Shown in pieces: positions 49,620 through 55,505 of a DNA stretch of 64,000 nucleotides. Each line of letters starts with the position of its first letter. The first letter of the stretch is position 1. This DNA is from an uncultured delta proteobacterium (lineage in GTDB: Bacteria > Desulfobacterota > Binatia > DP-6). A program made the translations under genes and the position numbers. The notes beneath the pieces were generated by a model. The model saw only the letters and a program-made list of their open reading frames with translations. It was not told the DNA's origin and searched no databases. The stretch covers positions 288,001 to 352,000 of the forward strand of contig CAWFFN010000009.1 of the NCBI GenBank assembly GCA_963815115.1. The letters run 5' to 3'.

Positions 49620-50219
49620 TGAACCGGCCCGGCTTCGCCGGAGGCTCGATTAGTTGAGTGCGGCCTCCGTGGCGGGAGTTGCGTGACGTTCGTAGTAGGC
49701 GCGCTCGTACTCGATCGGCGGCACGTGGCCAAGGGGCGCGAGGAGCCGCCGGGTGTTGAACCAGTCGACCCACGAGAGCGTCGCGAATTCGACGGCCTCG
49801 ACGTGGCGCCACGGACCTTGGCGTCGGATCACCTCCGTCTTATAGAGGCCGATCACAGATTCGGCGAGGGCGTTGTCATAGGAGTCACCGACCGTGCCGA
49901 CGGACGGCGCGATGCCCGCCGTCGCCAGGCGTTCGGTGTACCGCAGCGCGAGATATTGCTTGGGTTCAACCGGTCGTCAGCCCCGGGCGCCGGCCGCGAT
50001 CACGCTCCGCTTGGCGCACCCACTTCCGCAGCGCCTCGGCCGAGCACCCGATCTTCCCGGCGATCGACTGGATCGTCGCCCACTGCGAGTCGTGCGCTTC
50101 CTCGTTCGCCAGCACCAGCCCCACCGCACGCTCTCGCACCTCCGCTGAGAACCTGCTCGCTCGTCCCATGGCTCCATCCTCTCAAGGTTGGGAGCCTCCG
50201 GGAAACTCGGGCCGGTTCA
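49620..50219 (-). mobile_element. Internally deleted IS3-family element with both inverted repeats
   Basis: TGAACCGGCCCGGCTTCGCCGGAGGCT / AGCCTCCGGGAAACTCGGGCCGGTTCA; orfA start (FSAEVRERAV...) fused to orfB end (SYDNALAESVIGLYKTE...WVDWFNTRR). Confidence 0.9.
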
Positions 50220-50349
50220 CTCTGCACAGGTGGCCGTGCAGAGGCTGATGATTGGCTGAGTCATGAATCTGAGCGTGCCGGGAGGAGGATCGGTCTCGCC
50301 GTCGCGGCCCGCGAGCGGCGCGGCACCGTGGCAGATCGGGCGGCGGCAC

Positions 50350-50570
50350 TCACAGGACGCACCTCACCTGCGGCGGGAGCAGCTGGCGGCGCACCAGGTA
50401 GAGGTTCGCCAGCGCGAAGAGGCTGAAGGCCCGCGCGAGGTTCTTGGCGAGGCCGCGATACCGGACCTTGGCAAATCCCCACAGGCGCTTCACCACGTGG
50501 AACGGATGCTCGCCGCGGGCCCGGGTCCGCGACCGGGCCCGATTAATCGCCCGCCACCGCGGGGTGAGCG
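50350..50570 (-). mobile_element. IS5-family transposase 3' remnant
   Basis: EHPFHVVKRLWGFAKVRYRGLAKN...LFALANLY. Confidence 0.8.
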
Positions 50571-50839: not shown

Positions 50840-51280
50840 TCAAGACAGCCGAGTCGTCGGCAGTCCGGCGCGTCGGGCGGCCTGGCTCTGACGGCGATCT
50901 GCCGTGACGAAGCGCTGGCTGCCAGAGAGCACGGCAGCCGCCACGTGAAGAAGGTCCAGGGACCGGCACCCCAGACGCGCCGTGTGCTGGTTCGCCAGTT
51001 CGATGGCCTTGGCCATCGTGAGCGGCCAATCGATCGCTGCGCGGTGGAGCGTGCCCTCGTGGAGGTCCTCCTGGAGCCGCGCAACGGTGGCGTCGACCAG
51101 CTTGCGCACTCCCTCACGCCGGAAGAGGCGGAGGCGAAGCGCATTGACGACCTCCAGCTCGTGGAGCTGGGAGAAGAGGACGGGCTCCCCCCATCGTCGA
51201 ACCAGACGGGCGACGCGTTCGGATCGTGGCTCGGGTACGTAGAGCGAGACGAGGACGCTCGTGTCCAGCCAGAGGCTCAC
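50840..51280 (-). CDS. vapC: VapC PIN-domain toxin
   Basis: LDTSVLV, ELE, RSLDLLHVAAA, FVTADRRQ. Confidence 0.88.
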   Translation of the reverse strand: MSLWLDTSVLVSLYVPEPRSERVARLVRRWGEPVLFSQLHELEVVNALRLRLFRREGVRKLVDATVARLQEDLHEGTLHRAAIDWPLTMAKAIELANQHTARLGCRSLDLLHVAAAVLSGSQRFVTADRRQSQAARRAGLPTTRLS

Positions 51281-51522
51281 AGCCGCTCGGCCCGATTCTC
51301 GATCACGATCTCGCTCGTCGCCTGTCCTTCGGGGCCCCTCCCCCAGATGGCACGGGCGCGCGCGACGAAATCGGGCAGCCCGCCCTCCGGGCGGCGCGTT
51401 GCCGGAACGAGCCGCGCCACGGTCCGGTTGCGGCGGGTGATCTCGACGACCTCGCCGCGGGCGACCGCGCGCAGGATTCTTGGCAGGTTGTGCTGGGCCT
51501 CACGAACCGTTGCTGTTCGCAT
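51277..51522 (-). CDS. Phd/YefM antitoxin
   Basis: MRTATVREAQHNL...GEVVEITRRNRTVARLVP. Confidence 0.85.
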   Translation of the reverse strand: MRTATVREAQHNLPRILRAVARGEVVEITRRNRTVARLVPATRRPEGGLPDFVARARAIWGRGPEGQATSEIVIENRAERL

Positions 51523-51541
51523 GTGCGTCAGTATGACGCAC
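51523..51541 (-). promoter_or_regulatory. Candidate TA operator palindrome
   Basis: GTGCGTCA-GTA-TGACGCAC perfect inverted repeat abutting the antitoxin ATG. Confidence 0.65.
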
Positions 51542-51644
51542 GTCATCGGTTCCTCGCAACCGGCGTCCCGTCATGCGACTGCGGGTCGCCCATGCGGTGC
51601 TCGACTTGAGCGGCTCGGACACGGGCGGGACCGTACTGCCGGCG

Positions 51645-52012
51645 GGAATCCAACGCGTGCTCGTCCTGCACCATGGTGTGCTGGCATCGCACAGTCGCTG
51701 GCGCGCCCGGGGGGTCGCCTACGGGCGGCACCCTCGCCCCATCGGTGCGACGCTGCGGTTCGTGTGGGGGTCGCCCGCTTCGCCCGTTCCGTCGAGCGCG
51801 CCGCCGTCCAGCGGCGGGCTGGAGGCGGGCGGCGAGTCCCACCTCGATCCCGTCGGGACGCTCGGCGGACACCAGAGCGAACCGCTGTCGTCTCCGCCGG
51901 TGACGAGTCGGGACCCGGCCACCACCGCCAGCGTGGAGGCGCCCCCACCTCCGGCGGCGCGCAAGTGGTCCTGGCAGGAGCTGATGCGGCACACGTTCGG
52001 GGTGGACGCACT
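51645..52012 (+). mobile_element. IS91-family (Y2) transposase C-terminal remnant
   Basis: LVLHHGVLASHSRWRAR...WSWQELMRHTFGVDAL; continues as GIDVLACAHCG at 53931-53962. Confidence 0.75.
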
Positions 52013-53930
52013 GTAGACGCAACCCGGCAAACGCCTCTGCGCTTCGTCCTGCAACGCCGCGTCTTCCAGGTCGCGCGGCGACCGAATCGCCGGCGCGGGG
52101 CGCCGCGCTTGGCATCCCCTGCTGAAGCTGGTGACGCCCCCTCCGTGGGGAGGGGTGGTGGTGATGCGGCGGGAACGGACGTGGAGGATTGAATGGCGGG
52201 GGCGACCACAAGCGGATGGGTTCGAGCGGCTGGGCCAAGCCATGCGGCTGCTCATCGATCGGGCACAGGGCCAGCCGCCGGAACAGATCGGAAGCGGGGG
52301 AATGGAGCAGGCTGCGCCTGATCGGGCGGAGGGGGAGCGAAGATGACGCAACGGGGAGCACTCTACGCCCGGGTATCCACGGCGCGGCAGGAACAGGAGC
52401 AGACCGTGGCCTCCCAGGTGGCCGCGCTCGAGCAGGCGGCGGATGCCCTGGGCGTCACGGTGGCGGCCGAGCACCGCTACATCGATGATGGCGTCAGCGG
52501 CTCGCGGCTCGACCGGCCTGGGCTCGATGCGTTGCGCGACGCCGCCGCGGATGGGCTGCTCGATGTCGTGCTCATCTACTGCCCGGATCGCCTGGCACGC
52601 AGCTACGTGCACCAGCACGTGCTGATCGAGGAATTGACCAAGCACGGGGTGCACGTCCACTTCGTCGAGCGCCCGGTCGGTGACCGCGCCGAGGACCGCC
52701 TCCTCGTTCAGATGCAGGGGGTGATCGCGGAGTATGAGCGGGCCAAGATCGTCGAGCGCACCCGGCGGGGCAAGTTGCACAAGCTCCGCGCCGGGCACCT
52801 GCTCCCGTATAGCAGCGCGGCACCCTATGGGTACGCGATCGTGCGGGTCGGGGACGGACGGCGGCGGCTGGTGGTCGATGAGGTCGAGGCGGCGCAGGTG
52901 CGCGCGATGTACCGCTGGGTGCTCGACGACGGGCTCAGCGCCCGCGCCGTCGCCAAGCGGCTCAATGCCGAGAGGGTCCCGCCGCGGCGGGCGGCGCTGT
53001 GGACGCAAGGGACGATCTTCCGCATCCTGACGAACCCGGCGTACATCGGCCGCGCGACCTACAACCGCCGCGTCGCGATTGAACCCGCGCGGCCTCGCCA
53101 TCCGGGGAGGTATCGCAAGCAGCTCAAGAGCTCGTTGCGCTGGCGCCCGCAGGCGGAGTGGCTGTGGGTGCCGATTCCAGCCATCATTGACGAGGAGGTG
53201 CAGGGGGCGGTGCGGCAGGCGTTGGCCAAGCACAAGGTCTGGTCACCGCGAAACGTGCAGCACGAGTACCTCCTGCGCGGGCTGGTGGTCTGCGGTGCGT
53301 GCGGGTTGCGGATGGACTGTGCGCACCAGGCGCGGCCGGCCCAGCCGTACGAGTACTTCTACTACGCCTGCCGCCATCACGATCCGGTCGAGAGCGGGCG
53401 GGTGCAGCGGTGCACCGGGCGGCGGGTGCGCCGCGACGACCTGGATGCCGTCGTCTGGGACGCGTTGGGCTCCTGGATCCAGAGTCCGCGGCTCCTGGTC
53501 GAGGAGATCGCCGCCTGGCGCACGAGTCGGGACGGCGCCGGTGAGGTGGTGCGGGATCTTGCCCGCCTCGAGCGGGTCCAGCGCCAGACCGGGCTGCAGA
53601 TCGAGCGCTTGATCGACGCGTATCAGCGCGGCGCACTCAGCGTCGAGGAGCTCCAGGCGCGCCGCGAGCGGCTCGACGCCACGAGTGCGGCGGCGCGGGC
53701 CCGCGCAGAGGAACTGGCGGCGCAGGAGATGGATCGCGCGCGGCGCGATCGACTGGGCGAGGATCTCGCCGCCTTCGCCGCCACCCTGCGCTCGGGCCTC
53801 GCCCACCTCGACTTCGCCGGTCGCCAGCGGCTCGTAAGGCTTCTCGTGGAACGCGTCGTCATCACCGGCGACCACGTGGCGATCGAACATGTCATCCCAC
53901 TATCCGGTCGTTTTGCCGGTTTGCGACTAC
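52013..53930 (+). mobile_element. Large serine recombinase mini-element
   Basis: Terminal inverted repeats GTAGACGCAACCCGGCAAA / TTTGCCGGTTTGCGACTAC (17/19) enclosing a small ORF and an LSR. Confidence 0.8.
52164..52346 (+). CDS. 60-aa accessory protein coupled to the LSR
   Basis: MRRERTWRIEWRGRPQADGFERLGQAMRLLI...; ATGA overlap with the recombinase. Confidence 0.6.
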   Translation: MRRERTWRIEWRGRPQADGFERLGQAMRLLIDRAQGQPPEQIGSGGMEQAAPDRAEGERR

Positions 53931-53932
53931 GG
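52343..53932 (+). CDS. Large serine recombinase (no stop codon inside the element)
   Basis: YARVST (catalytic Ser), DDGVSGS, DRLAR, PYGY, LTNPAYIG, CGACG...YYAC...C zinc ribbon, coiled coil. Confidence 0.92.
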
Positions 53933-53962
53933 GATCGACGTGTTGGCGTGTGCCCACTGTGG

Positions 53963-54055
53963 GCTGATAGGCACGACGAAGGGCCTTTTGCCGCGGAGGC
54001 TTACAGAACGCCCCATCCCGGACCTTCGCCGCATTTTCGCCCGCTCCGTAACAAG
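53963..54055 (-). repeat. Junction element copy 3
   Basis: Matches 34801-34887 and 30260-30309; begins where the IS91 remnant breaks. Confidence 0.9.
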
Positions 54056-54090
54056 TTCCCACCGACCCCGGGGGTCGACCCGCGATGGAG

Positions 54091-54272
54091 GAAACTGGTA
54101 CGGCGCCGCTGCCGGCACCGAGGTCGAGCAATGTCTGGTGCGCGAAGCCCGCTAACAAGTTGGACCCGACGTCCCGTGCGCACCCGTGATTGTCGCCACG
54201 GACCGCGCGGTCCGCGAGCACGCTTGGTAGACTGCTGCCCCCAGGGACGTCACGCCGGCAGAACGGGAGGAC
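54091..54272 (+). ncRNA. Candidate IS110 bridge RNA region
   Basis: Non-coding left end containing CTTGGTAG (54223-54230), identical to the element right end plus core (55527-55534). Confidence 0.5.
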
Positions 54273-55505
54273 GTGACGATGGAGGTCATCCATGCCCAGT
54301 GCGCGGGGCTCGACGTACACAAGCAGACCGTGGTGGCCTGCGTGCGGATCACGGGCGCGGGGGGCGTGCGGCGCGAGGTGCGGACGTTTGCGACGACCGC
54401 CGCCGAGCTGCTGGCCTTGCAGGAGTGGCTGGTGGCCGCCGGCTGCACCCATGCCGTGCTGGAGTCGACGGGCGTCTACTGGAAACCCGTGTGGCACGTG
54501 CTCGAGGACCACCTGACCCTCGTGCTGGCCAACGCGACGGCGGTGCGCAATCTGCCCGGGCGCAAGAGCGACGTGAGCGACGCGCAGTGGCTCGCGGATC
54601 TGCTCGCCCATGGGCTGGTGCGCGGCAGCTTCGTGCCGCCCGCGCCGATTCAGGCGTTGCGCGAGCTGACGCGGACGCGCAAGCAGCTCGGGCGGGAGGT
54701 CACCGCCCACAGTCAGCGGATCGAGAAGGTGCTGGAGAGCGCGGACGTGAAGCTCGCCGCGGTGCTCCGCCCGCTGCTCGGCGTCAGCGGGCGGGCGATC
54801 ATCGCGGCCCTGGCGGCGGGCGAAACCGATCCCGAGCGCCTCGTGGCGTTAGCCCACCCGCGGCTGCGGCCGAAGCGGGCCGCGCTGCGGGCCGCGCTGC
54901 CCGGGCACGTCCGGCCGCATCATCGCGTCTTGCTGGGTCAGCACCTGCGGGTGGTCGAGACGCTGCGGGCGACGATCGCGGAGCTGGATGCCGCGATCGG
55001 GGCCGCCGTCGCCCCGTATCGCGCCGCCGTCGACCACCTCGTGACGATGCCCGGCGTGAGCACGACGGCGGCGCAGATCCTGGTCGCGGAGATCGGCACG
55101 GACATGAGCCGCTTCCCCAGCGCGGGGCATCTCGTCTCCTGGGCGGGGCTGTGTCCGCGCCAGGACGCGAGTGCGGGCAAGCACCGCTCCACGCGCCTCC
55201 GCAAGGGGGCGCCGTGGCTCAAGCCCGTGCTCATTCAGGGCGCGTGGGCAGCGGTGCGAGGCCGCGAGGGCTACCTCCGCACCCAGTTCCTGCGCCTCAA
55301 GCATCGCCGCGGTCCGATGAAGGCCATCGTCGCGGTGGCCGCCTCCATGCTCACCGCCGCCTATTACATGCTGCGCGACGACCAAGACTATCACGACCTC
55401 GGGGCCGCCCACTTCCAGCGCGGCGACCACAACCACCTCGTCGCCGGACTCACCCGCCGCCTCCACCACCTCGGTTACGAGGTCACGCTCCGCCCCGCCG
55501 CCTGA
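54273..55505 (+). CDS. IS110 DEDD recombinase/transposase
   Basis: GLDVHK, LESTGVYW, GRKSDVSDA, SWAGLCP...SAGK. Confidence 0.95.
   Translation: MTMEVIHAQCAGLDVHKQTVVACVRITGAGGVRREVRTFATTAAELLALQEWLVAAGCTHAVLESTGVYWKPVWHVLEDHLTLVLANATAVRNLPGRKSDVSDAQWLADLLAHGLVRGSFVPPAPIQALRELTRTRKQLGREVTAHSQRIEKVLESADVKLAAVLRPLLGVSGRAIIAALAAGETDPERLVALAHPRLRPKRAALRAALPGHVRPHHRVLLGQHLRVVETLRATIAELDAAIGAAVAPYRAAVDHLVTMPGVSTTAAQILVAEIGTDMSRFPSAGHLVSWAGLCPRQDASAGKHRSTRLRKGAPWLKPVLIQGAWAAVRGREGYLRTQFLRLKHRRGPMKAIVAVAASMLTAAYYMLRDDQDYHDLGAAHFQRGDHNHLVAGLTRRLHHLGYEVTLRPAA

Follow-up and report, generated by a model that had tools for sequence, protein, structure and literature searches.

Tn4451 and Tn5397 are said, in work by Lyras and Rood and by Wang and Mullany, to use a large serine recombinase (LSR) as a transposase that acts via a circle, with GA as the crossover dinucleotide; the circle joint of Tn4451 reportedly creates the promoter of tnpX. 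The integrase of phiRv1, which integrates into the repeated REP13E12 element, is the same three-domain enzyme as those of A118, Bxb1 and phiC31 and as the one described here. According to passages of PMC3783163, published attP sites of LSRs are pseudo-palindromic, with 25-bp half-sites around a central dinucleotide. Phages as well as integrative conjugative elements (ICEs) that use LSRs also resemble our locus in their hybrid attL and attR sites and in inserting into a conserved gene (passages of PMC3783163). We analysed a window of 64,000 nt, the whole stretch of DNA given above, from the genome of an uncultured delta proteobacterium. At 52007-53938 (all coordinates without a contig name are positions in this window) it contains a 1,932-bp unit made of a small open reading frame (ORF) and an LSR ORF, with near-terminal inverted repeats. 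We consider it likely, with a probability of about 0.8, that this unit is an integrative element resembling an insertion sequence (IS), that it was inserted by a single attP × attB event at a GA core, that it belongs to a family homing to transposition genes, and that its attP lies within the LSR gene.

In this interpretation, a single exchange catalysed by the LSR would have occurred at GA in the Asp codon of the FGxDxLxCxxCG motif of an IS91 transposase gene. The family would be widespread and often multi-copy, with each sub-lineage homing to a conserved motif in the transposition gene of another mobile element. As long as the element is integrated, the LSR frame would run out of it into the flank and take as its tail whatever the flank encodes. 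In the excised circle, the same frame would run into about 20-60 conserved codons at the other end of the element.

The element and its crossover site

The features of the locus are listed below with the evidence on which they rest. C5 and C9 are contigs of the same genome, and L-numbers denote homologue loci.

51660-52004, + strand: remaining C-terminal part of an IS91-family (Y2) transposase gene, whose DNA shows 86% identity with C5:1419383-1419738, with homology beginning at 51660; its last 9 nt are the inner B arm of attL.
52005-52006, + strand: attL crossover dinucleotide GA, bases 1-2 of the Asp codon of the motif (centre of symmetry of the rebuilt attP; homologue comparison).
52007-52031, + strand: P' half-site of attP, including the left repeat arm 52013-52031 (inverted repeat; geometry repeated in homologues).
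52007-52192, + strand: continuation of the LSR frame across the joined ends, 61 codons and TGA, codons 10-20 being PLRFVLQRRVF (phase; codon comparison).
52164-52346, + strand: small ORF of 60 amino acids (aa), candidate directionality factor (conservation at the same position; complex model).
52343-53938, + strand: LSR ORF, free of stops within the element; 532 codons take it to the end of the attR core (Pfam domains; open frame).
53912-53936, + strand: P half-site of attP, in which lie the right repeat arm 53912-53930 and the codons for the conserved GRFxxLR of the LSR C-terminus (inverted repeat; homologues).
53937-53938, + strand: attR crossover dinucleotide GA (evidence as for attL).
53939-53962, + strand: last 24 nt of the IS91-type gene, B' arm, ..VLACAHCG (C5 paralogue match from GACGTGTTGGC; metagenome variant).
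53963-54053, + strand: 91-bp repeat that truncates the IS91 remnant, outside the LSR element (19 genome copies in two clusters).
54054-55505, + strand: IS110-family element after the 91-bp repeat, transposase at 54273-55505 (DEDD_Tnp_IS110 and Transposase_20; four copies after the same repeat).

The LSR matches the Pfam families Resolvase (PF00239, residues 6-151, E 2.9e-34), Recombinase (PF07508, 181-296) and Zn_ribbon_recom (PF13408, 310-375). The serine nucleophile lies in the segment ..YARVSTARQ.., and S12 is nearly invariant across the LSR alignment. The gene starts at 52343, and the stop of the small ORF overlaps this start (ATGA). The two inverted repeats, of 19 nt each, are complementary at 17/19 positions. 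The G+C-rich 2.2 kb around the unit has 61 listed inverted pairs of at least 14 nt, so that the repeat alone is not beyond chance. What makes it meaningful is that it lies at either end of the unit and is kept in homologues; its score does not.

The interrupted gene was identified from an uninterrupted paralogue on contig C5, to which window positions 51660-52009 are 86% identical. A Pfam scan of the remnant in the window (147 aa) gave no match. The upstream part of the paralogue carries Zn_Tnp_IS91 and Y2_Tnp domains, and the target is therefore probably the remnant of an IS91-family transposase, interrupted in its conserved C-terminal FGxDxLxCxxCG motif. This agrees with the sequence-only reading, which had described an LSR mini-element inside an IS91-type transposase motif. 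The frame of the left flank reads ..WSWQELMRHTFGVDAL-stop (HTFGVDAL-stop in protein) and that of the right flank GIDVLACAHCG. Two 14-mers in the flanks are identical at 9/14 positions, and the repeats are bordered by CT on one side and GG on the other. These details, reported earlier along with the 1.9-kb unit, its 60-aa ORF and LSR, and the 17/19 repeats, are all present in the sequence. The earlier assumption that the core consists of the dinucleotides touching the repeats is not supported: the core is GA, 6 nt further out, and is the same at attL and attR.

Several observations place the core there. The C5 paralogue, which is uninterrupted at the site, matches the left flank through ..GGGGTGGACG / ..TTCGGGGTGGACG and the right flank from GACGTGTTGGC onward. 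Hence, the target sequence stops on the left and resumes on the right inside a common GACG, and not where the repeats end. In the reconstructed attP, 14 nt separate the two arms and consist of 6 + GA + 6, with GA at the exact centre. At the same distance from the repeats, the bases common to attL and attR are GACG (window), TCGA (L002) and GATCGAC (L001); L012, whose target is unrelated, has GA alone in common, with mismatches on either side. All homologues compared have the same arrangement, TTGCGnC, 9 nt, core, 9 nt, GnCGCAA. The visible inverted repeats are the outer parts of the attP arms, and the crossover lies 6 nt further out on each side. When 52006 is joined to 53939, the frame HTFGV-D-VLACAHCG is restored, GA being bases 1-2 of the Asp codon. 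The attP is pseudo-palindromic, its central dinucleotide is common to attL and attR, and no part of the target beyond these two bases is duplicated. An automatic search for inverted repeats and cores found the myxobacterial and alpha-proteobacterial clades of homologues, placed the core of the window 6 nt off and returned noise for the actinobacterial clade.

By this geometry, the left 14-mer is composed of B arm, core and P' arm, and the right one of P arm, core and B' arm, so that both are hybrid sites. Since the same GA core is found at attL and attR, a single insertion suffices to explain the asymmetry of the flanks. The partial resemblance between the two 14-mers comes from the inner attP arms, which are similar to the target, as they usually are in serine integrases. 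In three runs, metagenome contigs contain an uninterrupted IS91 variant that is identical to 53930-53962; this stretch follows ..GCGTT there and has the sequence FGIDVLACAHCGG, and the 7 inner nt of the P arm (53930-53936) are equal to this natural target arm. In the elements from Archangium it is the P' arm, not the P arm, that mimics the target. Such mimicry fits integrases that read similar inner sequences in attP and attB (passages of PMC3783163). Metagenome contigs of soil and sediment, at 93-99% identity, bridge the same attL (X1 51904-52283; X4 51961-52052). An attR contig (X1 53812-53947) runs into a different IS91-type continuation, a sign of an independent insertion at the same nucleotide.

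Two other explanations of the flanks had been proposed from the sequence. In one of them, the crossover takes place at GG beside the right repeat, and 12 bp of target-like sequence beyond the left repeat belong to the element; the gene, once restored, would read HTFGIDVL in place of the sequence given above. GGG is common to both 14-mers, and the metagenome IS91 variant, ..TTCGGGATCGACGTG.., makes the right flank target-like from 53930 onward. However, this crossover would leave the attP arms at about 3 and 15 nt from the core, whereas GA gives 6 + 6, a spacing held in every homologue. Moreover, L009, L011 and L012, which lie in unrelated targets, have only GA, or a few bases around GA, in common at the centre, and the paralogue with GGGGTG continues GACGTGTTGGC. 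We regard a crossover at GG as very improbable. The other explanation invokes independent insertions in two transposase copies that later recombined, the flanks being derived from different IS91 copies. The 24 nt of IS91 left on the right are too few to show that both flanks come from one gene, and comparable rearrangements are seen elsewhere, in L004 (TnpA/TnpC) and L068 (opposed IstB pieces). Yet nothing makes a second insertion necessary once GA is taken as the core, which joins the flanks in frame into a conserved motif; the same attL junction recurs in contigs from other samples, and the element occurs only once in the genome. A pair of insertions that later recombined is thus very improbable, and we retain the single insertion at GA.

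Targets of related elements

Relatives were collected by scanning one genome per species, which gave 239 pattern matches, 103 of them encoding relatives; the best 80 loci were kept. Twenty of these best 80 loci, at 58-67% identity, lie in Myxococcota genomes or metagenome-assembled genomes (MAGs). With the window included, 18 copies of this myxobacterial clade have both junctions readable (L013, with its right end cut off, L015, without flanks, and L020, with a right flank only, like that of L009, were left out). The IS91 motif holds half of them (9/18). Seven have the GA core in the Asp codon of the motif (the window, L001, L017, L002, L006, L018 and L069), and L014 and L016 have a TT core one codon upstream, the attR of L014 now being CT. 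Y2_Tnp was found in the flanks of L016 and L018.

Four of the 18 copies are in IS66 TnpA (NCBIfam matches below cut-off, in two pieces that match profile positions 3-30 and 33-79). L004 (Sorangium, 3664 / 5598) is flanked by IS66 TnpA on its left side and by the N-terminal region of IS66 TnpC on its right side, which suggests either that IS66 offers a second target site or that two copies underwent a deletion between them. L009 lies in a YhgA-like Transposase_31 gene and L011 in a RAYT-like gene (E 6e-7, below cut-off). L010 (Sorangium, 3664 / 5598) belongs to the IS66-targeting sub-lineage, is found in a large SpvB/FG-GAP/TcdB-like gene that has only CAAG in common with the usual site, and is an off-target insertion. 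The remaining copy, L012, is in a sequence matched to no named gene family. Within each sub-lineage, insertions occur at one codon of one motif. The readable C-terminal tails of database homologues, compared out of frame, match IS91 in 11/58 cases and IS66 TnpC in 1/58, the other 46 being without assignment.

Many of these elements are present several times per genome. There are three near-identical copies in So ce726, four in each of two MAGs and five loci from one MAG. Copies from the same genome are often 98-100% identical, and several contigs consist of the element alone, which points to recent multiplication. The copies compared in the myxobacterial and alpha-proteobacterial clades are 1.9-2.0 kb long, have terminal inverted repeats and encode mobility functions only. 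The element is therefore an insertion sequence in the ISfinder sense, its multiple copies being those of other genomes.

The more distant clades have other targets. The alpha-proteobacterial copies (36-40% identity) have near-perfect terminal repeats and lie between ..RW(I/V)V and ERT(I/F)AWL in seven loci, in reversed orientation in L071. The flank of L063 matches DUF4096 and DDE_Tnp_1, which places this clade in an IS4/5 DDE transposase. L071 and L073, of the same clade, have near-identical arms, complementary central dinucleotides (AC vs GT) and opposite orientations in the IS5 motif; nature seems to provide here an example of polarity set by the core. Elements of the actinobacterial clade have a length of about 2.7 kb. 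Among the 36 actinobacterial loci with at least one end located, 14 have flanks reading DRLxHH..| and |..SYR, and four have ..THKAHII. The IstB_IS21 Pfam match ends at profile position 222-223 of 238 in L024, L046 and L078. In L031 and L037 the insertion is just after the rve domain of a transposase with a Mu-transpos_C domain, and three further loci lie between positions 135 and 140 of the Phage_integrase profile, below cut-off. In L068 (actinobacterial, 2940 / 5631), C-terminal pieces of IstB are found on both flanks in opposite orientations, as expected after inversion between two inserted copies. A guess that the target of L045 and L047 is a DUF3987-type helicase was dropped, having no Pfam support. 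The flanks in IS91, IS66, YhgA-like, IS5, IstB and rve genes confirm the earlier proposal that such elements target conserved motifs of other mobile elements.

The recombinase frame and the small ORF

None of the copies from G+C-rich hosts has an LSR stop inside the element. The run-on past the match differs among near-identical copies, with, for example, 138, 332, 147 and 147 codons, and the LSR frame of the window is open to 55534. When the left end is translated in the phase that continues the LSR across the core, it gives a conserved peptide, PLRFVLxRRVF, in the myxobacterial clade. The alpha-proteobacterial clade has at this place a conserved block of 45 aa (DRLY..FEW..ELR.LG..LHRVPP) that is unrelated to the myxobacterial tail. 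The peptide is in the LSR phase in 13/14 myxobacterial-clade loci and in 6/6 alpha-clade loci. Only L017 departs from this, and it lacks 1 nt in comparison with its twin L001. In L011, a +1 shift at the right end is offset by a -1 shift at the left end, and continuity is retained.

The pattern of substitution in this tail is that of a coding sequence under constraint. Over 11 codons, the window and L011 differ by seven synonymous changes and one replacement. In 28 pairwise comparisons, differences at the three codon positions number 120/67/192 in the tail block; a control block further in gave 187/198/206. Over the first 45 codons of the alpha clade, changes are about twice as frequent at third positions as at the others, and they are evenly spread beyond. 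The block is outside the frame of the target gene, and in the window it lacks a start codon. Most simply, the full-length LSR (532 + 61 codons here) would be encoded by the excised circle only. With attP inside the LSR gene, integration would therefore swap the C-terminal tail of the enzyme. In L001, L002, L003 and L009, the frame that continues the LSR is open for 112-120 codons and stops at a TGA overlapping the LSR's own ATG. In the circle of these elements the reading frame would close on itself, which may be due to chance in G+C-rich DNA.

The small ORF encodes 60 aa from ATG, or 71 aa from GTG at 52131, and matches no Pfam or NCBIfam family. It is found at the same position in loci of the myxobacterial clade (tblastn E 1e-7 to 1e-10), where the first ~35 residues are conserved and W7, G19 and R22 are invariant. 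In a complex model of its residues 1-48 with the LSR, the pair scored 0.63 and the best of three controls 0.00; this mark is reached by 58/80 solved complexes and 2/110 mismatched pairs, a calibration that is approximate here, as our own alignments were used. The partner has a pLDDT of 61-62, and at least 79% of contacts are common to the runs. The modelled contacts involve LSR residues 366-379 and 481-520, at the end of and after the zinc-ribbon match (310-375), two segments that we take to flank the putative coiled-coil insertion. Directionality factors act at the coiled-coil base of LSRs. The model supports binding of the small protein near the predicted coiled-coil base, and we infer that the small ORF is a candidate directionality factor.

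The insertion could be as we describe it and the split ORF be devoid of function. In that case, the frame would stay open simply for want of a nearby stop in G+C-rich DNA, and the conservation of the left end would reflect a DNA signal, such as recombinase sites or a promoter, or an independent peptide. Long open frames do arise by chance at this G+C content. A contiguous protein with LSR and tail was found neither among 81 database homologues (0/81) nor in two database searches for longer proteins with the window tail or the alpha-clade tail, and the tail is unconstrained past ~20-45 codons. These searches weigh against our reading of the frame too, as do several other facts against our interpretation as a whole. 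The LSR frame of the window runs 531 codons into unrelated DNA, and the product of this copy may be defective owing to the run-on. There is one copy in this genome, and a search of 40 related genomes (four from its genus, 20 from its family and 16 from its class) did not detect this LSR at E<=1e-60, which leaves activity in this host hypothetical. Contigs assembled from four metagenome runs contain no circle joints, an absence that means little in contigs. As the P arm is equal to a natural IS91 variant, a crossover against that variant cannot be placed by sequence alone, and the position at GA rests on symmetry and family comparison. The target matches to IS66 TnpA, RAYT and tyrosine recombinases are below curated cut-offs, and neither the automatic search nor flank comparison resolved crossover cores in the actinobacterial clade.

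A mere absence of stops is nevertheless hard to reconcile with the tail itself. Changes at third positions and synonymous changes dominate the block, in which Arg is encoded as CGC, CGG or AGG, and the phase is held despite differences in element length and the compensated frame change of L011. The alpha clade has the same design with an unrelated 45-aa tail, and the block has neither its own start codon nor the frame of the target gene. For these reasons we think that a non-functional split ORF is unlikely, although it is the most serious competitor of those considered. We infer instead that there is a circular intermediate and that the LSR exists as two isoforms differing in activity. A bolder version, which we hold only tentatively and think rather doubtful, is that these elements could be obligate 'parasites of parasites' with a built-in state sensor: the tailed LSR encoded by the circle would integrate, and a tail-less or mis-tailed LSR together with the small protein would favour excision. 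If true, this would be a directionality switch without phage-style regulation.

Genomic setting and comparison with known systems

The genome has a single copy of the LSR element, and all its IS91 copies are decayed. The closest relatives of the element are in Myxococcota and soil metagenomes, and it is probably a horizontal arrival. Its neighbourhood is a graveyard of mobile elements. The IS91 remnant is truncated upstream near 51660, beside a PIN-domain toxin and Phd/YefM antitoxin pair (50840-51546, - strand) that lies directly upstream of it; the junction where the 5' part of IS91 was lost is between 51546 and 51660. Further upstream (49650-50500, - strand), translations resemble, by eye, IS3-family OrfA/OrfB fragments and the C-terminal end of another transposase. 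Downstream, the remnant is truncated at 53962 by the 91-bp repeat, followed by the IS110 element. The 19 copies of the repeat form two clusters (C9 318-429 kb and C5 1376-1419 kb) with an irregular spacing of 1.7-14 kb. The IS110-family element sits at the same position after the repeat in four copies, which suggests that the repeat is a site-specific IS110 target. One inverted copy is found ~150 bp past the stop of the C5 IS91 paralogue, and the repeat may be an IS91-related end. We also considered an integron attC array, an idea prompted by the adjacent toxin-antitoxin cassette. Two integron integrases are above the curated cut-off (C9:616301-617218 and C5:519851-520699, 432 and 389 bits), but both are remote from the window and at distances of 190 kb and 850 kb from the clusters, in which the repeats are irregularly spaced.

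Genome engineering relies heavily on serine integrases, whose choice of site and direction is a live question. Close relatives that have been retargeted to defined 40-50-bp protein-coding motifs would be a ready series for studies of att-site retargeting. The combination of an att site in the enzyme's own frame, a conserved tail encoded only by the circle and a 35-aa partner suggests a minimal directionality mechanism. Elements that disrupt the transposase genes of IS91, IS5, IS21, IS66 and others could restrain these insertion sequences or hitch-hike on them. Such elements would be routinely mis-annotated, as a 'recombinase family protein' beside 'transposase pseudogenes'. In literature searches aimed at such elements, and in passages of Durrant et al. 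2022, we found no description of LSR mini-elements homing to transposase genes, although the supplementary tables of the latter might list such targets, nor of an LSR gene with attP inside it. What is new in the element is this location of its att site, together with the conserved partner ORF.

The differences from known systems lie in size, targets and the position of attP. Unlike the 10-50 kb elements of phages and ICEs, this one has 1.9 kb, no cargo, targets in transposition genes and an attP within the recombinase ORF, and its family is multi-copy within genomes. Tn4451 and Tn5397, with TnpX and TndX, have a relaxed choice of target and carry resistance or conjugation cargo, unlike the element described here; and whereas the circle of Tn4451 forms a promoter, the circle here would complete a coding sequence. 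Durrant et al. link a multi-targeting LSR clade to DUF4368 and report an enrichment of competence genes among target genes (passages of PMC10083194). DUF4368 is absent from the Pfam matches of the window LSR. We rejected membership in the multi-targeting clade of Tn4451 and Tn5397, given the lack of this domain and the insertion at one codon of one motif per sub-lineage.

The IS607 family also consists of minimal elements with a serine recombinase as transposase. Its enzymes are small, have an N-terminal DNA-binding domain and show little target specificity. Membership in this family was rejected too: the NCBIfam model transpos_IS607 scores 32.3 bits against a cut-off of 110, over the catalytic domain only. 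We know of no serine recombinase with an att site within its own ORF. The nearest precedent, by analogy only, is that of the SSV-type ('suicidal') integrases, whose recombination site is in the integrase ORF, so that integration splits the gene (PMC7253208). These are tyrosine recombinases, split into two large fragments, whereas the serine recombinase described here would keep its catalytic and DNA-binding domains and exchange a short tail. Elements such as Tn5053/Tn402 have been termed 'res site hunters' (PMC7765201). Like Tn5053/Tn402 and IS110/IS1111, our element is specialised for inserting into parts of other mobile elements, which for these families are repeats or attC. They do so with DDE or DEDD enzymes and at DNA sites, whereas the targets here are protein-coding motifs of transposase genes.

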